Of a stretch of DNA of 64,000 bases, positions 27,675-35,748 are shown piece after piece. The notes under the pieces are model-generated. The model worked only from the letters and a program-made list of their open reading frames with translations, had not been told where the DNA came from and searched no databases. Each line of letters begins with the position of its first letter. The first letter of the stretch is position 1. The stretch covers positions 1,248,001 through 1,312,000 of the forward strand of contig CAWFQK010000004.1 in the NCBI GenBank assembly GCA_963817955.1, read 5' to 3'. This DNA comes from an uncultured Gemmatimonadaceae bacterium. GTDB lineage: Bacteria > Gemmatimonadota > Gemmatimonadetes > Gemmatimonadales > Gemmatimonadaceae. The position numbers and the translations under genes are program-made.

Positions 27675-27968
27675 CTGAGATCGTGGACCGATGCAGGACC
27701 CCCAGGACTGGCATATGTCCGCTAATGATCTCGTTCGGCCGGGGCCCGATCCCCTCACGTCCGCGGCGCTCGATCACGAGGCTGACTGCGGCACGCTCGG
27801 GTAGCTCTGACAAGACGGTACTAGCCGATCTGGCCGGCACTCCGCATCATTGTCAGCCTGCGCCTGCATGACGCCGACATGACGCTCGAAGACGAGCTTC
27901 CGCCGCGCAGTCAGCCCAAGGATAGGGAGTGGATGGGGAGTGGCGCAGCCGAACGGGGGGGGCAGCCC

Positions 27969-30900
27969 ATGATTGTCATTCACACGCTCGGCGCGGCGCT
28001 CATTGATCTGGGCGACACGCGCCTCACGCCGACATCGTCGCGGAAATTTGCTCTACTTTTGCACTTGGCGGCGAGGAGCGGCCACCGCGTGTCACGCGCG
28101 GTGTTGCGAGATCTGATCTTTGGAGACCAAGACGACACGCACGCGCTGCATTCGCTCCGCGAGGCCGTCTATCAACTGCGCTACATGGGCGCGCCGATCG
28201 AGTCGATTGGTGACATGCTCGAGCTGCCGGCGACTGCCGTGCAGAACGACGTGGACGAATTCGTCAACGCCGAGCAGTTGAGCGCAACGCAGATCGCAGC
28301 CGCGCACGGTGGCTTCCTTCCGGCCTACGCGCCCAGCCTGTCCGAAGCATTCACCGAATGGCTCGAAGGCTATCGTGCCGAATCGACCTTCGCGGTGTGC
28401 AAGGCCCTGAATCGGGCCGCCGAGGGTGCGCGCAGCGTATGCGATTGGCTCATGACCGAGCACGCCGCACGGGCATGCCTGGCACTCAGCCCGTGGAACG
28501 CTGCGGCGACGCGATGCTTGGCACAGGCGCTGGCGGCCGGTGGGGCAAGGGTGGAGGCCATGCAATTGTTGGACAAATACATGGCGGAAATGGGGCCCGG
28601 ATCGGCGGACCTGAAGGTGTCGGCGGAGCTGTTGAGGTGGCGGATTGGGGAGCGGTTGTCGAATACGTATCAGCCGGATCACCTCCGTTTTGTCGGCCGC
28701 GAAGAGGAAATCCGCGTACTCAAGAATCGTCTGGTGCTCGCACGGTCTGGAATTCCCCAATGCATCGTTCTGACCGGAGAGTCGGGAATTGGTACGACAC
28801 GCATCGCGAGCGAGATATCAGCGATAGCAGTCTTCGGCGGCTGGGTAGTCCAGCGATTCATCTCGCAATCGCAAGATGTCCAGCGGCCGATGAGCGCGTT
28901 TACCGATCTTGCTCCAAAGCTCGTCGACCTTCCGGGCGCTGGCGGATCCGACCCCGAATCGATCGCTTCAATCGCTCGACTAAGCAATCGCATTGGCGCA
29001 ACGTTTGATATCGCAGCCGCAACCGAGATGTCCGACGTGCGAAACGCCGCGTTCGTTCACACGATTTGCGACGTCATCGGTGCTCTGACAATTGAGGCGC
29101 CACTCATGCTCGTTCTTGAGGACGCGCACTGGCTCGATGCGGCATCATGGGGCCTCGTCGCTCGCTTGGCTTCGTCGAGTAGTAGTGGGCGGTTAGCCAT
29201 CTTGCTGACGAGTCGACAGGATGCACCAGTCCCAGTAAGCATGATGAGTCACGCACACTTGCTTCAACTGGTAATCGGCCCGCTGAGCCCAGCGGCGACG
29301 GGCACGATTATTGACGCGCACCTACCAAAACGATTTTGCGCCGACCCTGCGGCCGTGGCGTGGGTCCACCGCATCGGCGCTGGCAACCCGTTACATCTTC
29401 AATATCTAATAGATCACATCAAGACAACGGGTGAGCATTCCAGCATTCCGCTTCCACTTGCGGCATTAATCGATCAACGACTGACGGGTCTTTCGCCCAT
29501 CGCAACTGAAGTGCTCCTGTTGATTTCATTGCTGGGAAAGCACGCGACTTACGATCGCCTCACCCAAGCCTTGCAGGTCCCGTGGGCTGAAGCGCTCTCC
29601 GCTGTGCGCGAGCTGGAGTCTGCACATATGATTGCGGAAGACGACGGACGTATTGAACCGATCCACACGCTAATTGCTGAGGGACTGGAGCGACGTAATC
29701 CACCTATTACTGCGAAGCTCGCGCGCCAGCGCGTTGCGATCATACTTCTTGCCGAGTCGGAGGGCAGCCAGAACGCAGCATTGCTGTGGGCTGCCGCGGA
29801 CCTTTGCGTTGCGTCCAGCATGACATCCGAAGCCATCAAAGCGTTACGGGCATGCGCTGGCCACTCCCTCACTCTTGGACGGGCGCGCGAAGCTGCGCAA
29901 TCTCTCTTGCGTGCGGCAGGACTACTACCGCAAGCAGAGCGCAAATCGCTCGTGTCTGAGGCTGTACGAATTGCTGCCGGATCAGAATTGGATCTGACGA
30001 TTCAAGCCATACAACTCCTGGGCCGCCGGCCGGAAGCTGAGCACCACGACGATTTCGAATTAGCGAGTCTACAGGCTGAGCTCTCTGAATCGAAACAGGG
30101 CGACGACTCTTACTTGCGTTTGCTAGACTGCATTGCTTCGACATCCGCGCGCATCGACCACCGTCTCGGCGCGGCATTGTCGCTGTTAATGTACTGCGAT
30201 CATTCCCACGACATGGCGCTCGCTCATAAGGTGTTTGCCGTTGTCCAAATGATCGCAGATTCTGGAACCGAACACGATCGATTGTTAGTACTAAAGTCGC
30301 AGCTGGTGTTCCACACATGCGTCGGAGACAGCTCCACCGCAGCTACGATCGCAAGGTCGCTCTTGGTTGCGGCGGCCGATGCTCGTCCGGACGTGGCGGC
30401 GGATCTGCAGCGCAAAGCCGCGATTGGATTCTGGCGCTCGGGGCACACTTCTGAAGCGCTCGCCGCTTTCAGGGATTCTTATGCGACTGCTCGCGAGTGC
30501 GGTCTGCTGCGCCTTCAATTCCATCTAGCACTGATGTTGGCAAGTGAGTACTCAGATATCGCGAATCCAGACGAGTCCCAGCTTTGGATCGACAGAGCCC
30601 AGGAAGTTGCCTCGGACCTTCCCAATCTTATGTCGTCGTTCTTCTATTTCAGCGTCCGCGGCGATCTTGCTCTCGCAAGCGGCGATACGGATGAGCTACG
30701 GCGACTGAATGCTGTATCCACGGCGTTCGGCACGCAGAACGAACGAGCGAGGCGAAGAACCGCCGCATTGTCGTTGCTCGTGAGACATTTGGATTCGCAT
30801 GCGCCTTCGACCGAGGACGTCGTTGAAGCGATGACTTCTCATCATCGCCCGGCTAGCGAACTAGGCGACAGTAGCGATTTTGAAGTGGCAGTACTCGCTG

Positions 30901-31052
30901 CAATTCTGACAGAACGCGATGAGCGCGCGACAGCGATTGGCCGGATCGGTCGCTATCTCGATCACTATAGACGGGACAAGTCCCCTATCCTGGCTGCCCT
31001 GAGAATCGCAATGGGCAGGCTCGGCGCATTGCGTCACGAGTCAGCTGATTAG
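27969..31052 (+). CDS. wHTH/BTAD + STAND (AAA_16-like) ATPase + TPR-like regulator
   Basis: SLREAVYQLR, FTEWLEGYR (BTAD); FVGREEE, GESGIGTT, LEDAHWLD, GNPL. Confidence 0.85.
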   Translation: MIVIHTLGAALIDLGDTRLTPTSSRKFALLLHLAARSGHRVSRAVLRDLIFGDQDDTHALHSLREAVYQLRYMGAPIESIGDMLELPATAVQNDVDEFVNAEQLSATQIAAAHGGFLPAYAPSLSEAFTEWLEGYRAESTFAVCKALNRAAEGARSVCDWLMTEHAARACLALSPWNAAATRCLAQALAAGGARVEAMQLLDKYMAEMGPGSADLKVSAELLRWRIGERLSNTYQPDHLRFVGREEEIRVLKNRLVLARSGIPQCIVLTGESGIGTTRIASEISAIAVFGGWVVQRFISQSQDVQRPMSAFTDLAPKLVDLPGAGGSDPESIASIARLSNRIGATFDIAAATEMSDVRNAAFVHTICDVIGALTIEAPLMLVLEDAHWLDAASWGLVARLASSSSSGRLAILLTSRQDAPVPVSMMSHAHLLQLVIGPLSPAATGTIIDAHLPKRFCADPAAVAWVHRIGAGNPLHLQYLIDHIKTTGEHSSIPLPLAALIDQRLTGLSPIATEVLLLISLLGKHATYDRLTQALQVPWAEALSAVRELESAHMIAEDDGRIEPIHTLIAEGLERRNPPITAKLARQRVAIILLAESEGSQNAALLWAAADLCVASSMTSEAIKALRACAGHSLTLGRAREAAQSLLRAAGLLPQAERKSLVSEAVRIAAGSELDLTIQAIQLLGRRPEAEHHDDFELASLQAELSESKQGDDSYLRLLDCIASTSARIDHRLGAALSLLMYCDHSHDMALAHKVFAVVQMIADSGTEHDRLLVLKSQLVFHTCVGDSSTAATIARSLLVAAADARPDVAADLQRKAAIGFWRSGHTSEALAAFRDSYATARECGLLRLQFHLALMLASEYSDIANPDESQLWIDRAQEVASDLPNLMSSFFYFSVRGDLALASGDTDELRRLNAVSTAFGTQNERARRRTAALSLLVRHLDSHAPSTEDVVEAMTSHHRPASELGDSSDFEVAVLAAILTERDERATAIGRIGRYLDHYRRDKSPILAALRIAMGRLGALRHESAD

Positions 31053-31064
31053 CGCAACGGCCGA

Positions 31065-32432
31065 TCAGCTACTGCGAACCGATGCCCGTCCGTATTGGCG
31101 GCGAGGCGAGATCACCGCGAATGGCGCTCGCGCGACTGTCTCGCTGTATGTAGAGGCTGAAGCAAATAGGGAGAACCACAGCGGGCTCGAAAGAAGCCGA
31201 TCCGCGATCGAGGGATCAAACTGAGTTCCGCGGCACCGCACGACCTCCGAACGCACCTGAGGCTCAGTGAGTGGCGCCCGATAGGGACGTTGCGACGTCA
31301 TCGCGTCGATCGTGTCCGCGAACCGAATGATGCGTGCAGCCAAAGGTATCAAATCGCCGGCCAATCCATTGGGATATCCCGTACCATCCCAATTCTCGTG
31401 GTGGTGTCTGAATCGCTGGTACAATCTCGCGAAGACGAGTCATCGTCGCGATCAGATTCGCCCCATCAACCGAGTGTTCCTGAATCAGCGCCCACTCATC
31501 CGGAGTTAGTTTCTCGGTCTTCGACAACACTTTCGCATATTTCTCATGAATCTTGCCGACATCGTGCAGCAGCGCCGATTGACCGACCTGCTCCACGACA
31601 CGCTCGCTGAGTAACAGCGCCCGAGCAATGACAACAGAGTAATGCTGTACCCGCCGCGAATGGCCTGATGTGTAGGGATCGCGCGCTTCAATCGACTTCA
31701 CCATCAACTCGAGCAGTTCCTCGTTCGTCCGCTCCAATTCCAGATTGTTTTGTGGACCTGCCGCAACCCAAGGATCGGCACCCAGAGCGTTGCTGCGGCA
31801 AGCCAGCCGAACGCTACGTACACCCAAGCAAAGAACAGAACAAGCGGAGCGGTAAGGAGATCCAGAACGATCATCGAGCCGGTGTTCTGGAACCAAACAC
31901 GCCAAATCGACTTCCCGGCCTCGATGGCGATTACGCCAGCAACCACAAGGTTGTTTAGAAGCAGGCCGCAAGCGAACGCCAGCAATGCAGCGACCCCCGC
32001 CTCACGCGTTACATGCGTCAACGAAAGAACGTCGCCTGATGGCAAGAAGGCTCACACCTCCCAGCGCGACATAGACGGCTATTGTCGCGGATACTGCGAG
32101 TGTCTGCTGAGGCTGATATTGAAAATCGCCTTTGTCGGCGCGCGCCGTGCCGCAGCTTCTGTCAGTAGTCTTACCGTTGCCACCACCACGATCGTCGTCC
32201 ATGCCGGATTGATCACGGCCATCGCGAAATACGGAATGAATGCTATCGAGCCACTCGCAGACTGCGGGAGCACAAAGCTCAACATGTCGGCTGCGACAGC
32301 AAGCGCCGTCAATACTGCAAGCGCGGTCCAGCTACCCGTGACGCTGGCCGGCGCGACAAGGAAGACCACCGCAGTAATGATTGCGGCGATCATTCCAATG
32401 ACCGCGACGTAAACCCGTGTCCGGACTCGCAT
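31065..32432 (-). CDS. Membrane-sensor HD-GYP c-di-GMP phosphodiesterase (4 apparent frameshifts)
   Basis: Multi-TM N-terminus (KAIFN), then EARDPYTSGHSRRV, LLHDVGK, HHHENWDGTGYP, DAMTSQRPYR; frame changes near 32110, 32040, 31745, 31410. Confidence 0.85.
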
Positions 32433-32466
32433 AAAGAATGACCCCCTGCCCTCACTCACGTCCAAA

Positions 32467-32517
32467 TCACCCAGTCCTGCCCCACATAAAGTTCAGAGCT
32501 TGGCTGATCTTTTTCAT
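32467..32517 (-). CDS. 16-aa micropeptide MKKISQALNFMWGRTG
   Basis: ATG AAA AAG ATC AGC CAA GCT CTG AAC TTT ATG TGG GGC AGG ACT GGG TGA, preceded by AAGGGGGTGA 7 nt upstream. Confidence 0.65.
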   Translation of the reverse strand: MKKISQALNFMWGRTG

Positions 32518-32743
32518 AGTTGCGTCACCCCCTTGGTCCGTCAGTCACACGTCACCGTGTGCTCCAAAGTGAGCTCCGCTCAACTACCTGGACTGAATTG
32601 TCCTCCGCTCGTCTCCGCTTCAGCGAGGGAGGGGGTCGTATTTGTAATTTCTTTGAATTAGGGAATCGTACGGTGGGAGATCCTGCGGTTCCATCTCTAC
32701 CACCAACAACCGCACCGCGTCGTCGCGGCCTGTCGGAGGGGCC

Positions 32744-33505
32744 TTACCGGTCCAACCAGCGATTTGTCGCGTCCAGCACAGCCAGCACGCTCGCCGTCTC
32801 CGGGCTCTCGCGAACCTCCGCGCTTCCCGTCATCAGCGAGCTCTCGCGACCTTGCCGAGTCGTGACACCCACGAACACGAACTCGTGCTCGAATGCCTCG
32901 ATCAGTTTGCAGCCCTCCAGCGCCAGCACCCGCTCCTCACCGTCCCCCTCCGCCTGTCGAATGGCCGACAGGGTGGCGCGGGCAGCAAGCTCAATGCGAA
33001 GGCGTTCGTTCTCTATGCCCTCCGCTTCGCCGACGTACGACTGTTCACCCTTCTTCAGCGTAACTCGGCAGGCAATTCCCTTTGACCGCGAGCGGCGTAC
33101 TTCCACATCCTCAAAGTAGATCCGGCGGCGCGCAATAGCTGGTTCGGAGGGGGCCGTCCGCTCCATCACCGAGCCGGCGGAGCCGACGGGCGCGTACGCC
33201 ACGGTCGGCAAGTGCAACGGTGTACTGGAGTTACGCGGTGTCTTGTCGCTCTCGTTGGACATCGCCACGCTGATCTTCTTATGGCTCACGCGCATCCCCA
33301 AATGGGCGATCAGCGCGCTCTCAACGTTTCGAACGGTCTGCTTGGGCGTGACGTCGGTGCCCGTCAATATGTGGATCTCTTCTACCGATCCGTTGGTCCC
33401 CGCGACGATGCGCGCCGAGATTACCCCGGGCAATGTGCCCAGGAGCTCTTCAGCGCGCTGAATTGGCAATACGCTGCCGGCTATCAAATTGGATTCGCCT
33501 GGCAT
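32744..33505 (-). CDS. Conserved-looking two-domain hypothetical protein
   Basis: GVISARIV..EEIHIL..PKQTVRNVESAL..HKKISVA; C-domain ending SVLAVLDATNRW. Confidence 0.8.
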   Translation of the reverse strand: MPGESNLIAGSVLPIQRAEELLGTLPGVISARIVAGTNGSVEEIHILTGTDVTPKQTVRNVESALIAHLGMRVSHKKISVAMSNESDKTPRNSSTPLHLPTVAYAPVGSAGSVMERTAPSEPAIARRRIYFEDVEVRRSRSKGIACRVTLKKGEQSYVGEAEGIENERLRIELAARATLSAIRQAEGDGEERVLALEGCKLIEAFEHEFVFVGVTTRQGRESSLMTGSAEVRESPETASVLAVLDATNRWLDR

Positions 33506-33668
33506 CGTCGAGTTGTTGGCTGGCAGGGACAACACACGCTCCGGCGTCGAGACAGTATATCCGGCGTATGACGACCGCCGGCACTGGGGGTCACGGTCAG
33601 CGTCGACCTGGGGCAGGTACGGTGAATATGTGCGTCCCGAACGAACGAAGCAACCAGACAGCCTGGCC

Positions 33669-35222
33669 TCATTCCACCGCGTACTCGTACTCCGGCATTC
33701 GGTATTCCTTGATCTTGCGGTACAGTGTGCGCTCGCCAATGCCGAGCATCTCTGCCGCACGCCGCCGGTTGCCACGTGTCTCTTTCAGCACCAACTCGAT
33801 CGCCGAGCGCTCAATGTCCGCCATCTTCATCCCGGCCGCAATGACCACCACGTTTGGCGGCGGGGCCTGGTCGCGCGGCTCGATGGCCGGCGCCGTCGGT
33901 GCCACGATGGCCGGCGGATGAATTTCCCCCAGCCAACCGTCGTTCACCGGCACCTGATGATCGCCCACGCGGCGGCGTAGCTCTTCTACCTGAAGCCGGA
34001 GCTCGAGCAGGCTGCGCACGATGAACTCCAATTCGCGCCCGCTGGCGCTCTCCTGCCCGCGCACGATTGGCCCAACGTGTACGGGCAGAAAGCGTCCCTC
34101 AGGCCCTTCCTTTATCTGCCGCGGCAGGTCGCCCGGCTGGATCTCGCGCCCCGGCGACAGCACCACCATATTCTCGATGAGGTTCCGCAGCTCGCGCACG
34201 TTTCCCGGCCATGCATACTCCACGAGCTTCTGCATCGCCTCGGCGGAGATCCCGTGGAACGGCCGGTCGTGTTCGCGCGAGTAATCGTGAACGAACCGGC
34301 GCACGAGAAACGGAATGTCTTCCGGCCGTTCGCGAAGGGGCGGCAGGTAGATGCGCAGCACGTTGAGCCGGTAGAACAGGTCGGCCCTGAAGCGGCGCTC
34401 CTCCACCAGCTCGCGCAATGGCTGATTGGTGGCGGCAATGACGCGCACGTCCACCTTGATCGGCTGCACGCCACCCACTCGCATGAACTCGCGCTCCTCG
34501 AGCACGCGCAGGAACTTGACCTGTGTCGACGAAGGGATCTCACCGATCTCGTCGAGGAACAGTGTTCCGCTATCCGCCAGCTCGAATCGCCCCAGCCGGC
34601 GCTCGGCGGCGCCAGTAAACGCTCCCTTCTCGTGCCCGAACAACTCGCTCTCGAGCAGGCTCTCGGACAGCGCGCCGACGTTCACGGCAATGAATGGCTT
34701 GTTGCGCCGGTTGCTGAGCAATCGGATGGCCCGTGCCACGAGCTCCTTGCCGGTGCCGCTCTCGCCTTCAATGAGCACGGTGCTCGAGACGGGCGCCATC
34801 TGCTCCACCTGCACCATCACCTCGCGCATGCCGTCGCTCTCGCCAATCAACCCCGTGAGCCGCTGAAGCCGCCGGCGCTCGAGTATGCGACGCACCCCGC
34901 CAAGGACTTCGTCCACATTCACCGGCTTGGGAAACAGGTCGACGAAGCCGACGGTGCGCAGGCGCTCCAGCTGCGCCGGATCGACGTTGTCGGCCAGCCC
35001 CACGGCCGCTGCACCCTCCCAGAGCTGTTCCTTGACGATGGCTGCCGTGGACGAGTCGGCGAGCTCGCCGCTGAACACGATCAGATCGGGTTTCTCGCGC
35101 TTGAGCGCCGCGCGAATGTCGTCGAGCGGCGACACCAGCGCGGTCTCGACGCCATCGCGCTCGAGGAGCGCGTTGAGCCGAACCGCCGGCTCGACGTCAT
35201 TCAGCGTGAGAAGAACCTTCAT
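33669..35222 (-). CDS. Sigma54-dependent enhancer-binding protein (atypical REC-AAA-Fis HTH)
   Basis: GESGTGKE, ESELFGHEKGAFTGA, LFLDEIGE, WPGNVREL, AAEMLGIGERTLYRK. Confidence 0.93.
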   Translation of the reverse strand: MKVLLTLNDVEPAVRLNALLERDGVETALVSPLDDIRAALKREKPDLIVFSGELADSSTAAIVKEQLWEGAAAVGLADNVDPAQLERLRTVGFVDLFPKPVNVDEVLGGVRRILERRRLQRLTGLIGESDGMREVMVQVEQMAPVSSTVLIEGESGTGKELVARAIRLLSNRRNKPFIAVNVGALSESLLESELFGHEKGAFTGAAERRLGRFELADSGTLFLDEIGEIPSSTQVKFLRVLEEREFMRVGGVQPIKVDVRVIAATNQPLRELVEERRFRADLFYRLNVLRIYLPPLRERPEDIPFLVRRFVHDYSREHDRPFHGISAEAMQKLVEYAWPGNVRELRNLIENMVVLSPGREIQPGDLPRQIKEGPEGRFLPVHVGPIVRGQESASGRELEFIVRSLLELRLQVEELRRRVGDHQVPVNDGWLGEIHPPAIVAPTAPAIEPRDQAPPPNVVVIAAGMKMADIERSAIELVLKETRGNRRRAAEMLGIGERTLYRKIKEYRMPEYEYAVE

Positions 35223-35262
35223 GGCAATGGGAACAGGGCGATGGACAGTGGGCGAAGCAGCG

Positions 35263-35748
35263 TCACCCGGCGTGATCGTAATGATCGGCGCAGAGAACGG
35301 TGAGCGCATGGTCGATGATCGGATCCAGAGCAGCCAGGCCGTCAGTCACGCCGCTCGTCGATCCCGGCAGGTTCACTATAAGCGTTTTCTTACGGACGCC
35401 GCTCAGTCCACGCGACAGGGCGGCCCGCGGAAAGGTTTGTAGCGACAGCACGCGAATGCGCTCGGCAATGCCCGGCGCCTCGCGTTCGATCACGGCTCGC
35501 GTCGCCTCTGGCGTGACGTCGCGCGGGCCAAGTCCGGTACCGCCAGTGGTGAGCACCAGATCGGCAGCTTTGGTGTCGCACCAGCGGGTGAGCGCATCGG
35601 TAATCCGAACCGGTTCGTCGGGGACGAGCGCGCGGAGCACGATCTCATAGCCGCGCGCTGTTCCCCATGCTGCAACTGCATCCCCCGACGTGTCGGCGCG
35701 CTCACCGCGCGCGCCGGCGTCGGAGATGGTCAGAATAGCTAGACGCAT
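35263..35748 (-). CDS. mog: Molybdopterin adenylyltransferase MogA/MoaB family
   Basis: LTISD, DTSG, TTGGTGLGPRDVTPEAT, NLPGS. Confidence 0.88.
   Translation of the reverse strand: MRLAILTISDAGARGERADTSGDAVAAWGTARGYEIVLRALVPDEPVRITDALTRWCDTKAADLVLTTGGTGLGPRDVTPEATRAVIEREAPGIAERIRVLSLQTFPRAALSRGLSGVRKKTLIVNLPGSTSGVTDGLAALDPIIDHALTVLCADHYDHAG

Follow-up and report, generated by a model that had tools for sequence, protein, structure and literature searches.

We begin by considering the genes at the locus. The window, that is, the whole 64,000-nt stretch of DNA that was analysed from an uncultured Gemmatimonadaceae bacterium, carries on its minus strand a gene for a 253-aa hypothetical protein (32744..33505), a leader RNA, a 51-nt micro-ORF (MKKISQALNFMWGRTG*, 32467..32517) and the gene for a MASE9-HD-GYP phosphodiesterase (31065..32432). 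A sigma-54-dependent activator (33669..35309, minus strand, assigned by Pfam and NCBIfam) is the neighbour upstream of the unit in Gemmatimonadaceae and is given here as context. The order within the unit is the same across Gemmatimonadota, where the hypothetical gene, which comes first, is followed by a leader of ~130 nt, an SD-led micro-ORF of 14-37 codons and the MASE9-HD-GYP gene. The micro-ORF, its SD, the gap of 34 nt between its stop codon and the HD-GYP ATG (32432) and the G-rich ribosome-binding site of that start (GGGCAGGGGG) had all been described in a first-pass annotation, and we confirm them, all on the minus strand. The same is true of the hypothetical gene (33505..32744) upstream on the same strand, and this directly upstream position is kept in 77/85 loci, with the 8 misses all having no more than 242 nt of upstream DNA.

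The SD of the micro-ORF (AAGGGGGTGA) falls within a conserved block, SD1 (CCAAGGGGGTGACGC, 32536..32522, minus strand), that contains the ribosome-binding site of the micro-ORF and an invariant GUGACGC. That this SD lies inside a conserved structured RNA had gone unseen in the first pass. The micro-ORF does not stand out beyond chance from the window alone, so that the case for it rests on conservation; the comparison of related sequences indicates that the micro-ORF is real, conserved across the phylum Gemmatimonadota and placed inside a structured leader RNA. The copy in the window is probably frameshifted. The stretch ATT TGG ACG TGA (32467..32456) is the counterpart of the '..I-W-x-stop' that relatives have directly before GTGAG, and this family pattern, here ..I-W-T-stop, is out of frame with the ATG of the micro-ORF. 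The leader is single-copy in the source genome.

The HD-GYP gene was described in the first pass as a multi-TM gene. It is not one open gene here, for it is broken by four frameshifts that were overlooked. The ORF list gives four pieces (32465-32079, 32045-31704, 31971-31264 and 31424-31065), and tblastn with six intact orthologues, combined with a three-frame print, places the frame changes near 32117-32104, 32031-32019, 31755-31740 and 31416-31398. The HD and HHHENWDGTGYP motifs can still be made out. The Pfam HD_5 match falls into two parts (profile positions 2-102 and 104-170, at 38.5 and 61.4 bits with a cut-off of 27.2), and both LLHDVGK and RHHHENWDGTGYP, which are invariant columns of a 38-protein alignment (A7), are legible in the frames of the window. 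A Pfam scan of the fragments gave no match to MASE9 (PF20972) at E<=0.01. The genes of the relatives are intact and encode 451-465 aa. From 67 distinct downstream ORFs, 53 were scanned with Pfam; an HD_5 protein is found in 49 of the 53 (99-128 bits in the complete genes), the remaining 4 being truncated by contig ends, and MASE9 is found in 30 of the 53 at E<=1e-4, three of these under the 24.3-bit cut-off. In the locus L020, which belongs to the same genus as the window, MASE9 scores 31.0 bits.

The frameshifts may be real decay or assembly error. On the side of assembly error, the gene is broken in 4/5 assemblies of the same genus with 40 contigs or fewer versus 0/7 with at least 50 contigs. 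On the side of decay, five indels in 1.45 kb are well over the background of the source assembly, where the ABC_tran domains, ~58 in all, include about 3-4 that are split (a hand count from a table). The public contigs compared with the locus reach none of the frameshift sites. Because this copy is broken, the leader may not work in the source genome.

The 253-aa hypothetical protein has no sequence match in Pfam, NCBIfam or the PDB. Its AF2 model (mean pLDDT 84.3) has an N-terminal alpha-beta-beta-alpha-beta part and a C-terminal (beta-beta-beta-alpha)x2 domain, and the latter is similar in fold to the LiCMS/LeuA regulatory domain (Z 9.7, rmsd 3.1 A over 109 aligned residues; Foldseek E 2e-5). 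Similar hypotheticals beside HD-GYP genes in other phyla had been mentioned in the first pass, which our search does not bear out: what we find is Gemmatimonadota, bar three short MAG contigs labelled otherwise. Of the pattern-matched loci, 87 have 1500 nt or more of DNA upstream, and the sigma-54 activator lies upstream in 48 of them; these 87 include chance hits in coding DNA, which have no such activator. None of the loci with a second form of the leader (variant 2, considered below) has it.

This neighbourhood also bears on the idea, raised in the first pass, that the peptide is an autoinducer, which would be exported and then detected by the HD-GYP sensor from the outside, in the manner of peptide quorum sensing. 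The one point in its favour is that a small ORF adjoins a membrane sensor, and we consider it very improbable. No exporter, protease, modification or processing gene is present among the immediate neighbours that were scanned (the hypothetical gene, the sigma-54 activator and an AAA_16 ATPase), and the tiny peptides of 14-27 aa have no recognisable signal or pro-peptide part. Being mostly hydrophobic, they would remain in the membrane. The periplasmic loops of MASE9, moreover, are short and poorly conserved according to the accessible part of the preprint that defines the domain (10.1101/2021.11.05.467447).

We turn our attention to the leader. Within the genus of the window its identity is 84-94% versus 68-78% for the flanking coding DNA, and an alignment of 13 sequences (A1) has 96 invariant columns. 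A search with the model R2 finds the leader in 39/151 sampled genomes of the phylum (by family, 23/31 in f1, 13/74 in f2 and 2/7 in f6); among the sampled Gemmatimonadaceae genomes it is present in 23 of 31. Rfam 15 has no family at E<=1 over 30500-34500 of the window, and at this threshold the leader belongs to no described aptamer class. The leader is an undescribed structured RNA that most likely controls the translation of a membrane c-di-GMP phosphodiesterase.

The largest structural feature of the leader is P0, a long-range helix of 14-19 bp. Its C-rich 5' strand (CGACCCCCTCCCTCGC, 32623..32638, minus strand) lies upstream of the leader core and could alternatively pair with SD1, and its 3' strand (GTGAGTGAGGGCAGGGGGTC, 32440..32459, minus strand) follows directly after the micro-ORF stop and contains the SD of the HD-GYP gene. 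The strands 32623..32638 and 32459..32440 are paired in the MFE fold of the window's leader (-89.1 kcal/mol, z -4.5), and P0 is present in 9/9 MFE folds of diverse leaders. In the 51 distinct loci of the Gemmatimonadaceae form, the mean duplex energy, computed in strand windows chosen by the analyst, is -29.4 kcal/mol for cognate strands, -22.9 for swapped strands and -14.3 for shuffled partners. The cognate mean is reached by 0/10,000 permutations in these loci and likewise in variant 2 (16 loci; cognate -38.0 versus swapped -29.7 kcal/mol, 0/10,000), although such tests overstate independence because the loci are mutually related. Variant 2 has a G-rich 5' strand whose partner, which follows the micro-ORF, is C-rich, so that the pairing is retained with other sequences. 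P0 covers the SD of the HD-GYP gene in Gemmatimonadaceae and the start region in the variant-2 families. Its 3' strand falls inside the 35 nt that start at the stop codon in all of the 51 loci except one (L035).

SD1 itself lies in a hairpin. The invariant repeat GAGCGGAGC pairs with SD1 and GUGACGC in 9/9 MFE folds; 5 of the 6 pairs of this helix never vary, so that covariation cannot test them. The hairpin is capped by P5 (32543..32563, minus strand), which has a covarying stem: 3 of the 4 scored pairs change on both sides, with 42 double-change cells versus 10.6 in shuffles, a value as high in 0/500 shuffles. P5 and P0 covary, and the rest of the core is nearly invariant, so that covariation does not reach its pairing.

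Combining these features, we arrive at the explanation that we think probable: the unit is a hypothetical gene and a MASE9-HD-GYP gene joined by a translational control leader, in which translation of the micro-ORF opens P0. In the default state both ribosome-binding sites, that of SD1 and that of the HD-GYP gene, would be hidden. Some input would free SD1, the candidates being a small ligand, temperature, a protein on the NAG/GGA repeats, or a pause of the ribosome at the Trp codon. Once on the micro-ORF, a ribosome would then meet the inner end of P0 and unzip it, exposing the HD-GYP start site to a new ribosome or to re-initiation, so that HD-GYP synthesis would be coupled to micro-ORF translation; the freed C-rich 5' strand could then re-pair with SD1. 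Beyond the conservation, the helices and the peptide pattern, which are observed, we infer the direction of control and its coupling to micro-ORF translation. No obvious SD is seen before the HD-GYP start in the variant-2 loci, and the coupling step may therefore differ there (re-initiation). A regulatory uORF had been only the fallback idea of the first-pass annotation, yet it suits the anatomy better than its main idea, since the stop codon lies right against a covarying long-range helix in which the start region of the HD-GYP gene is hidden.

The next question is "what input frees SD1?" The core carries NAG triplets in two places. Cluster 1 (AAG CG GAG AC GAG CG GAG, 32602..32621, minus strand) has in-register NAG triplets with 2-nt spacers that differ between genera, and cluster 2 (32564..32587, minus strand) contains the invariant GAGCGGAGC and forms the 5' arm of the SD1-sequestering hairpin. 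The pattern GAG-NN-RAG occurs 2.40 times per leader versus 0.16 in shuffles, and the triplets stay while the spacers vary (for example, GAG AU GAG UU GAG CG). A small hairpin, GGAC-AAUUCA-GUCC (32590..32603, minus strand), is predicted by RNAalifold in the same genus and its near relatives, and its stem is altered in other genera (GGAA/UUCC, GGAU/AUCU).

One possible answer, if a somewhat doubtful one, is that the ~100-nt core is itself the sensor, either as a new riboswitch class (e.g., for a cyclic dinucleotide) or as an NAG/GGA target of an oligomeric protein. Such a sensor would name the input that is missing from the translational switch; on the protein side, the candidates would be CsrA or the hypothetical protein encoded in the unit, working by a logic like that of TRAP. 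The unpaired stretches are highly conserved, with GAGCGGAGC and GGUGACGC invariant in 52/52 aligned leaders, although both were required by the scan pattern. The fixed triplets with variable spacers recall the targets of TRAP in Bacillus, which have 9-11 NAG repeats with non-conserved spacers according to the text available of PMC1474065; the in-register triplets here, however, are just 3-4 plus 2-3, below the TRAP sites. No TRAP (TrpBP, PF02081) was found in the source genome, which is 94% complete, in a search whose B. subtilis control was positive. A CsrA gene (75.2 bits) is present in that genome, and GGA occurs both in the invariant repeat and in the SD1 of most genera, but its CGGAG context is not the one usually known for the CsrA motif. 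The hypothetical gene is constantly adjacent and the modelled fold of its C-domain is that of an amino-acid-binding regulatory domain. Against a role in RNA binding, its best folds are small-molecule-binding and common ferredoxin-like domains, and the dsRBD, PUR and Rad52 matches are weak. The Rfam search described above also speaks against a known class, no ligand can be inferred, and the purpose of the repeats could instead be to pair alternatively with the pyrimidine-rich strands.

We now consider the peptides. The first-pass annotation had proposed to look in relatives for an SD-led small ORF with a conserved Trp, and the micro-ORF is conserved there. It starts 0-5 nt after the invariant GTGACGC (2-4 nt in 70/72 distinct contexts), with ATG in 66 of the 72, GTG in 4 and TTG in 2. 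Trp is the sole invariant column in an alignment of 35 peptides; among the 66 distinct complete peptides it is second to last in 53 and among the last four residues in 60, and an acidic residue 3-8 positions from the end is found in 42. Several peptides have two or three Trp near the end (..AHWW, ..QSWW, ..GWVSWGA). The codon-level check, also proposed there, gives signs of selection on the peptide (pooled pN/pS of 0.62, 0.56 and 0.35 in three groups), and synonymous changes are seen at conserved Ala, Asp, Phe, Ser, Lys and Gly codons. The 55 distinct peptides from outside the window's own genus are 23 aa long at the median, with a mean GRAVY of 0.91, and 33 of them contain a TM-like hydrophobic window of 15 residues. 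Within the genus, 7/11 are peptides of 14-20 aa without a TM-like stretch (e.g., MTTTRWWTGILIWG), in which the position, the SD and the Trp are retained. Reading in the ATG frame (frame 0) ends at P0 in 29/50 loci, and reading in frame +2 does so in 19/50. A uORF that serves purely by the act of being translated would not need conservation of the peptide over its whole length, as found in most genera (hydrophobic helix, acidic residue, Trp), and this argues that the peptide itself has a role.

What this role could be is suggested by the neighbouring sensor. A membrane peptide of ~23 aa may bind MASE9 as an intramembrane ligand or subunit and tune the phosphodiesterase activity, with P0 mainly keeping the two in step. 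We hold this only tentatively and would lean against it. It is the membrane-ligand idea of the first-pass annotation and is compatible with the translational switch. The hydrophobic character, the placement of the Trp and the acidic residue, pN/pS values below 1 and the constant association of the micro-ORF with MASE9-HD-GYP are all consistent with it. The authors who defined MASE9 suggest a ligand bound within the membrane, in the portion of their text at hand (bioRxiv 10.1101/2021.11.05.467447). A fold test of the 37-aa peptide of locus L089 with residues 1-245 of its MASE9 returned 'weak support' (score 0.56, best of 3 controls 0.02); the mark for this verdict is reached by 116/157 solved complexes and 2/215 mismatched pairs, with scores of 0.60 or less found for only 18 of the 157 solved complexes and for both of the passing mismatches. 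Between runs, 89% or more of the contacts recur, and the pLDDT of the partner is at least 61. The controls, however, were unrelated 37-residue proteins rather than other hydrophobic helices, and a helix of this greasy kind may find a docking place on whatever membrane bundle it is offered. The short peptides of the window's genus also count against this idea, as does the fast divergence of the peptide sequences against a leader RNA that hardly changes.

Alternatively, the peptide could matter through its end. A ribosome could stall at the Trp codon, by scarce charged tRNA-Trp or by nascent-peptide arrest, hold P0 open and so raise HD-GYP translation, in the way of attenuation or arrest peptides such as the erm and cat leaders and TnaC. 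The invariant Trp, its place near the end and the peptides with two or three Trp fit this account. The stop codon lies directly at the inner end of P0, so that a ribosome stalled over the last codons would sit on the P0 strand. We nevertheless judge it quite unlikely: a single Trp codon senses starvation only weakly, the account leaves the conserved hydrophobic part at the N-terminus unexplained, and constraint on the peptide and on the RNA are inseparable at this position because Trp has a single codon. No connection of Trp with c-di-GMP turnover is known to us, and by eye the peptides show no resemblance that we know of to the TnaC or SecM motifs.

The translational switch could also be one part of a larger, so far undescribed three-part signalling device, in which a Trp-anchored MASE9 partner of ~23 aa, coupled via P0, is joined to a new class of RNA sensor (a riboswitch, or the hypothetical protein reading the NAG triplets as TRAP does) and would tie a metabolite signal to c-di-GMP breakdown throughout the phylum. 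We regard this combination as unlikely as a whole.

The Gemmatimonadota are common in soil and their regulation has received little study, and c-di-GMP is the messenger of the switch between motile and biofilm life that HD-GYP enzymes degrade. The unit places an unannotated RNA element and a micro-gene upstream of the gene for a c-di-GMP-degrading enzyme, and routine annotation overlooks the leader RNA and the peptide alike. MASE9 has no ligand known to us; one concrete candidate is the conserved hydrophobic micro-protein that is encoded and, by the proposed coupling, co-translated with it. The RNA core, for its part, is a candidate new riboswitch or protein-RNA switch. Among the MAGs that carry the leader are some labelled Gemmatimonas, and members of that genus are in culture. 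Given the compact size of the leader, its clear and mutually exclusive pairings and this occurrence, each step should be open to standard reporters.

Finally, we compare the unit with known systems. The c-di-GMP riboswitches (GEMM-I/II) precede GGDEF, EAL and HD-GYP genes, and the present leader is likewise a conserved structured RNA before a c-di-GMP turnover gene; it differs in its micro-ORF architecture and in having no match in Rfam. MgrB is a small membrane protein that modulates the sensor PhoQ. The likeness is that of a tiny hydrophobic protein encoded near, and perhaps acting on, a membrane signalling protein, but such proteins are longer and are not coupled leader ORFs in a structured RNA, and for binding of the peptide here the modelling gives weak support. 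In the erm and cat leaders and in TnaC, a ribosome held in an SD-led leader ORF opens a helix in which the SD of the gene under control is buried. Here, too, the leader ORF adjoins an SD-hiding helix and conserved residues lie towards the end of the peptide; the Gemmatimonadota unit, however, involves no antibiotic and no known arrest motif, pausing would be hypothetical, and the RNA core has no counterpart in those leaders. With the TRAP targets of Bacillus (PMC1474065, the part drawn on above) the leader shares in-register NAG triplets with short variable spacers near a ribosome-binding site, though with 3-4 plus 2-3 triplets rather than 9-11, and without a TRAP gene in the source genome. 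In M. tuberculosis, the ppe2 uORF lies behind a B12 riboswitch and its translation is essential for PPE2 expression, with coupling or re-initiation proposed, as given in the accessible sections of PMC11260477. As far as those sections go, both cases have a structured RNA and then a short leader ORF whose translation serves, or here would serve, the downstream gene; the Gemmatimonadota leader differs in that it matches no known aptamer (Rfam, E<=1) and that its peptide is conserved. The last comparison is with Salmonella mgtQ, which opens a stem-loop that hides the mgtB ribosome-binding site and in which particular peptide residues matter, according to the available extract of PMC8092293. The differences are that P0 is long-range, spanning ~200 nt and enclosing both the conserved ~100-nt RNA core and the ORF, that the SD of the micro-ORF is buried as well, and that the peptide of 14-37 aa, hydrophobic and with a Trp-x end, has no sequence relation to mgtQ; the phylum and the target gene also differ. 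In both, however, two genes of the same operon (mgtC and mgtB in Salmonella) have a very short ORF between them, it is SD-led and directly upstream of the gene to be regulated, and the start region of that gene falls in a helix that the ribosome of the uORF would enter, as computed here from the strand energies and the position of the stop codon.

We begin by considering the unit as it lies on the minus strand of the window. The 253-aa hypothetical gene (33505..32744) is located 5' of a 51-nt micro-ORF (32517..32467, encoding MKKISQALNFMWGRTG and a stop, with the Shine-Dalgarno sequence AAGGGGGTGA, called SD1 below), and the start ATG of the HD-GYP phosphodiesterase gene (32432) lies 34 nt beyond the micro-ORF and has a G-rich ribosome-binding site. 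The first-pass annotation had described this order of hypothetical gene, SD, small ORF and 34-nt gap correctly, but the HD-GYP gene that it placed downstream is not intact. The gene consists of four overlapping reading-frame pieces, with the Pfam HD_5 domain divided over two frames (2-102 and 104-170 of the profile) and the catalytic HD and HHHENWDGTGYP motifs remaining legible. Using tblastn with six intact orthologues together with a three-frame print, the frame changes are located near 32117-32104, 32031-32019, 31755-31740 and 31416-31398.

The broken frame may reflect an error of assembly, the explanation towards which we lean, or a real decay of the locus. The source genome of the window (4.53 Mb) is assembled in 9 contigs, and within its genus the breakage is found in the assemblies of low contig number: the gene is broken in four of the five with 40 contigs or fewer (the window's own genome G000, G002, G005 and G024, with G020 intact) and in none of the seven with 50 contigs or more, which argues for assembly error. 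Real decay is favored by the density of the lesions, five indels in 1.45 kb including one probable indel in the micro-ORF, and by the background of the assembly, where just about 3-4 of about 58 ABC_tran domains are split, approximately one per 6 kb (a count taken from a table). A second HD_5 gene of the same genome, outside the window (G000:C4:902297-902633), is also frame-split (profile positions 63-112 and 112-169) and bears on the quality of the assembly. The public sequencing runs listed for this sequence include no RNA run and two DNA runs, of small share, from one study; the contigs of these runs that fall on the window are three of 151 nt (31859-32009, 32165-32315 and 33197-33347), and the leader and all frameshift sites lie outside them.

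Between the hypothetical gene and the micro-ORF lies a leader (about 32643..32511) that is 84-94% identical across the genus in a DNA search of 40 relatives, whereas the flanking coding DNA reaches an identity of only 68-78%. The alignment of 13 genus leaders has 96 invariant columns, and the window's own genome carries a single copy. A search of Rfam over window positions 30500-34500 gives no family at E<=1, and a tRNA/tmRNA search gives none. With a pattern of two invariant leader blocks, at least 119 stretches are matched in species-representative genomes, and 80 loci were taken; among the matches listed, the taxon labels are mostly Gemmatimonadaceae, Gemmatimonadales, Gemmatimonadota and Longimicrobiales MAGs. 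Seventeen pattern loci are rejected as chance matches in coding DNA or unrelated taxa (e.g., CNNFC..YC radical-SAM genes, Streptomyces, Rhizobium). The working set combines the pattern matches listed with the loci from the genome searches, 85 loci in which some places are present twice.

The search model R1, built on own-genus leaders only, detects 12 of 151 genomes of the order and, with 30 recovered among the 80 pattern loci, is too narrow; it is therefore replaced by R2, built on 52 distinct leaders. Among sampled genomes at least 90% complete, R2 detects the leader in 39 of 151 genomes of the phylum (23 of 31 Gemmatimonadaceae, 13 of 74 in family f2, 2 of 7 in family f6 and none of 38 in the nine other families), counts that are too low for other forms of the leader since the model derives from the Gemmatimonadaceae form. 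Three short MAG contigs (2.9-5.4 kb; L045, L046 and L089) labelled Acidobacteriaceae, Propylenella and Dehalococcoidia contain a complete Gemmatimonadota-type unit. Mis-binning is the likeliest origin of these labels, ahead of horizontal transfer of the unit.

The first-pass annotation proposed a scan for small ORFs with a conserved Trp in front of orthologous HD-GYP genes, and a whole family of them is found: among the matches listed there are 71 distinct peptides, of which 66 are complete and usable. Set aside are the peptides truncated at contig ends, L019 and L035 for their frame problems, and two oddities from Longimicrobiales, L072 and L105. Across 72 distinct contexts among these matches, the start lies 2-4 nt past the invariant GGUGACGC in 70, the two others having 0 and 5 nt, and the start codon is ATG in 66, GTG in 4 and TTG in 2. 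Trp is the second to last residue in 53 of the 66 peptides and among the last four in 60, 42 have an acidic residue at a distance of 3-8 positions from the C-terminus, and in an alignment of 35 peptides Trp is the sole invariant column; typical members are MEFVAQLVNAMWSFVLADLKLWG and MLKISWLATVAYFVAGLFSKSETQTWA. The peptides beyond the own genus have a median of 23 aa and a TM-like 15-residue window in 33 of 55, while those of the own genus have a median of 17 aa and such a window in only 4 of 11. Conservation is seen also at the codon level, with multiple synonymous codons at the conserved Ala, Asp, Phe, Ser, Lys and Gly positions and a pooled pN/pS of 0.62 (14 sequences), 0.56 (5) and 0.35 (3), values from an uncorrected Nei-Gojobori count over non-independent pairs. 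In the window copy, the family pattern "..I-W-T-stop directly before GTGAG" is present out of frame, so that this micro-ORF has probably been shifted in the G-run at 32487..32476. As for the two oddities, L072 is better read from a GTG 2 nt past the ATG, giving a family-like 28-aa hydrophobic peptide that ends in ..AGW-stop, and the L105 peptide ends in ..TLP, without Trp.

We turn our attention to the helices of the leader. The long-range helix P0 pairs a 5' strand (32638..32623, minus strand) with a 3' strand (32459..32440, minus strand) that starts with the micro-ORF stop or immediately behind it and holds the SD of the HD-GYP gene. Over 51 distinct loci of the Gemmatimonadaceae type, the cognate duplexes have a mean energy of -29.4 kcal/mol, compared with -22.9 for swapped and -14.3 for shuffled partners, and the single clear miss (L035) is a locus where the micro-ORF stop is lost. 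A second form of the leader (16 loci of other Gemmatimonadales and Longimicrobiales) has a G-rich 5' strand and a C-rich partner, and keeps the pairing (-38.0 vs -29.7 kcal/mol). None of 10,000 permutations reaches the cognate mean in either form, although shared ancestry among the loci makes these tests overstate independence. When the ATG frame is compared with the two others for ending at P0, the counts are 29 of 50 in frame 0, 5 of 50 in +1 and 19 of 50 in +2, with the duplex search often falling inside the ORF.

SD1 itself is held in a hairpin, where the invariant GCG-GA-GCC-AA-CCU pairs with AGG-GA-GGU-GA-CGC (SD1 and GUGACGC) in all nine MFE folds of diverse leaders and the purine-purine internal loops are kept; five of its six pairs never vary, which makes them untestable by covariation. 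The hairpin that caps it, P5, does covary: both sides change in three of four pairs, with 42 such cells compared with 10.6 in shuffles (none of 500 as high), and 96% of the cells are paired vs 27-47% when the partner is slid. RNAalifold on a MAFFT alignment of 52 leaders recovers only 12 pairs. The C-rich 5' strand of own-genus leaders can pair either with its P0 partner or with SD1, so that three strands of the leader compete for pairing. The core also contains in-register NAG triplets with variable 2-nt spacers (AAG CG GAG AC GAG CG GAG in the window, GAG AU GAG UU GAG CG as an example elsewhere), and GAG-NN-RAG occurs 2.40 times per leader vs 0.16 in shuffles.

Among the matches listed, 77 of 85 loci have the hypothetical gene directly 5' and in the same orientation, and in the remaining 8 the upstream DNA is at most 242 nt long. 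The end of the hypothetical gene lies 68-349 nt from the invariant GAGCGGAGC, and since a terminator plus a promoter would hardly fit into the shortest gaps, the gene is likely co-transcribed with the leader. Terminator-like sites number four vs 2.3 expected, none of them in the interval from the hypothetical gene to the leader, and a search for sigma-70-like promoters gives none. Downstream, 53 of 67 distinct ORFs among the matches listed were scanned: 49 contain HD_5, the remaining 4 are cut by contig ends, and 30 of the 53 match MASE9 at E<=1e-4, a domain defined by Galperin and Chou, for which their preprint suggests ligand binding within the membrane (bioRxiv 10.1101/2021.11.05.467447).

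Several features surround the unit. A sigma-54-dependent activator (33669-35309, minus strand), for whose first ~150 aa Pfam has no family, is directly 5' of the hypothetical gene; such an activator stands before the unit in 48 of the 87 pattern loci listed with enough upstream DNA, a total that includes chance coding-DNA matches, and it is conserved at Gemmatimonadaceae loci and present at none with the G-rich form. A sigma-54-like GG-N10-GC site after the activator stop, 160 nt 5' of the hypothetical start, is present in 2 of 66 distinct upstream regions and, being unconserved, is dropped as chance. A semi-conserved own-genus hairpin (..GGCCGCGACGACGCGG.., about 32700-32660, minus strand; GACGG.CGCGA.G.CGCG..CCGUG at the same place in relatives L020-L023) lies between the hypothetical stop and the leader and could serve as a signal for processing or termination. 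In this interval one species alone (L016, from G020) has about eight tandem 8-nt units GGTGGACC, and four Gemmatimonas-like loci (L044, L050, L090, L121) have a hairpin (e.g., CATCGTC....GACGAT) and then an A-rich run directly 5' of the P0 5' strand, which may terminate the hypothetical gene or belong to a promoter. A 1057-aa ORF (27879-31052, plus strand) runs convergently to the HD-GYP gene and looks like a large STAND-type regulator, judging by an AAA_16 ATPase domain together with weak similarity to the TOMM kinase/cyclase family (49.3 bits, far under the cut-off).

What does the peptide do as a protein? The first-pass annotation proposed an autoinducer or membrane ligand of the sensor. 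Nothing supports a secreted autoinducer, which we consider unlikely. For a partner of MASE9, fold prediction lends weak support: the 37-aa peptide of L089 with MASE9 scores 0.56, compared with 0.02 for the best of three controls, with at least 89% of contacts agreeing across runs and a partner pLDDT of at least 61. Of the solved complexes 116 of 157 reach the mark, as do 2 of 215 mismatched pairs, and scores of 0.60 or below are given by only 18 of the 157 solved complexes and by both mismatches that passed. The controls are not hydrophobic helices, and we therefore weigh this prediction lightly.

In the most likely mechanism, it is the translation of the micro-ORF that matters. The conservation and the helices are established computationally; we infer a coupling of HD-GYP to this translation, with the following direction. 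By default, the ribosome-binding sites of both the micro-ORF and the HD-GYP gene would be hidden. Once SD1 is freed, a ribosome would translate the micro-ORF, encounter the inner end of P0 on arriving at the stop codon, and unzip the helix. The HD-GYP start would then be accessible, either to re-initiation or to a newly binding ribosome. The input may be a small ligand, in which case the core would be a new riboswitch; the invariance of the core is the one observation behind this choice. It may also be a protein bound to the NAG repeats. The targets of TRAP are NAG repeats with spacers (PMC1474065); a search for a TRAP homologue in the own genome gives none. CsrA is encoded there. The always adjacent hypothetical protein is another candidate reader of the repeats. 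Its AF2 model (mean pLDDT 84.3) has an N-domain of the common ferredoxin-like fold and a C-domain similar to the Ile- and Leu-binding regulatory domains of citramalate/isopropylmalate synthases (Z 9.7 and 8.0, Foldseek E 2e-5); the protein has no Pfam, NCBIfam or PDB sequence match, and its ESM Atlas clusters are named "hypothetical protein" alone. Finally, the input may be the pausing of ribosomes at the Trp codon.

The leader goes beyond what the first-pass annotation reported, and the observation of that annotation is confirmed in part. In the full texts searched, which lie mostly outside the subscription journals, we find no paper on this leader or on a uORF before an HD-GYP gene, and "Gemmatimon" is absent from the ncRNA-discovery papers of the full-text search. 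What is new is the phylum-wide leader, the family of Trp-terminated micro-ORFs and the link to MASE9-HD-GYP; unmasking by a uORF is an already known kind of mechanism. The same logic is followed by mgtQ-mgtB of Salmonella (PMC8092293) and by the riboswitch-controlled uORF of ppe2 in M. tuberculosis (PMC11260477), to which the present leader adds a long-range helix and, further, a conserved core.
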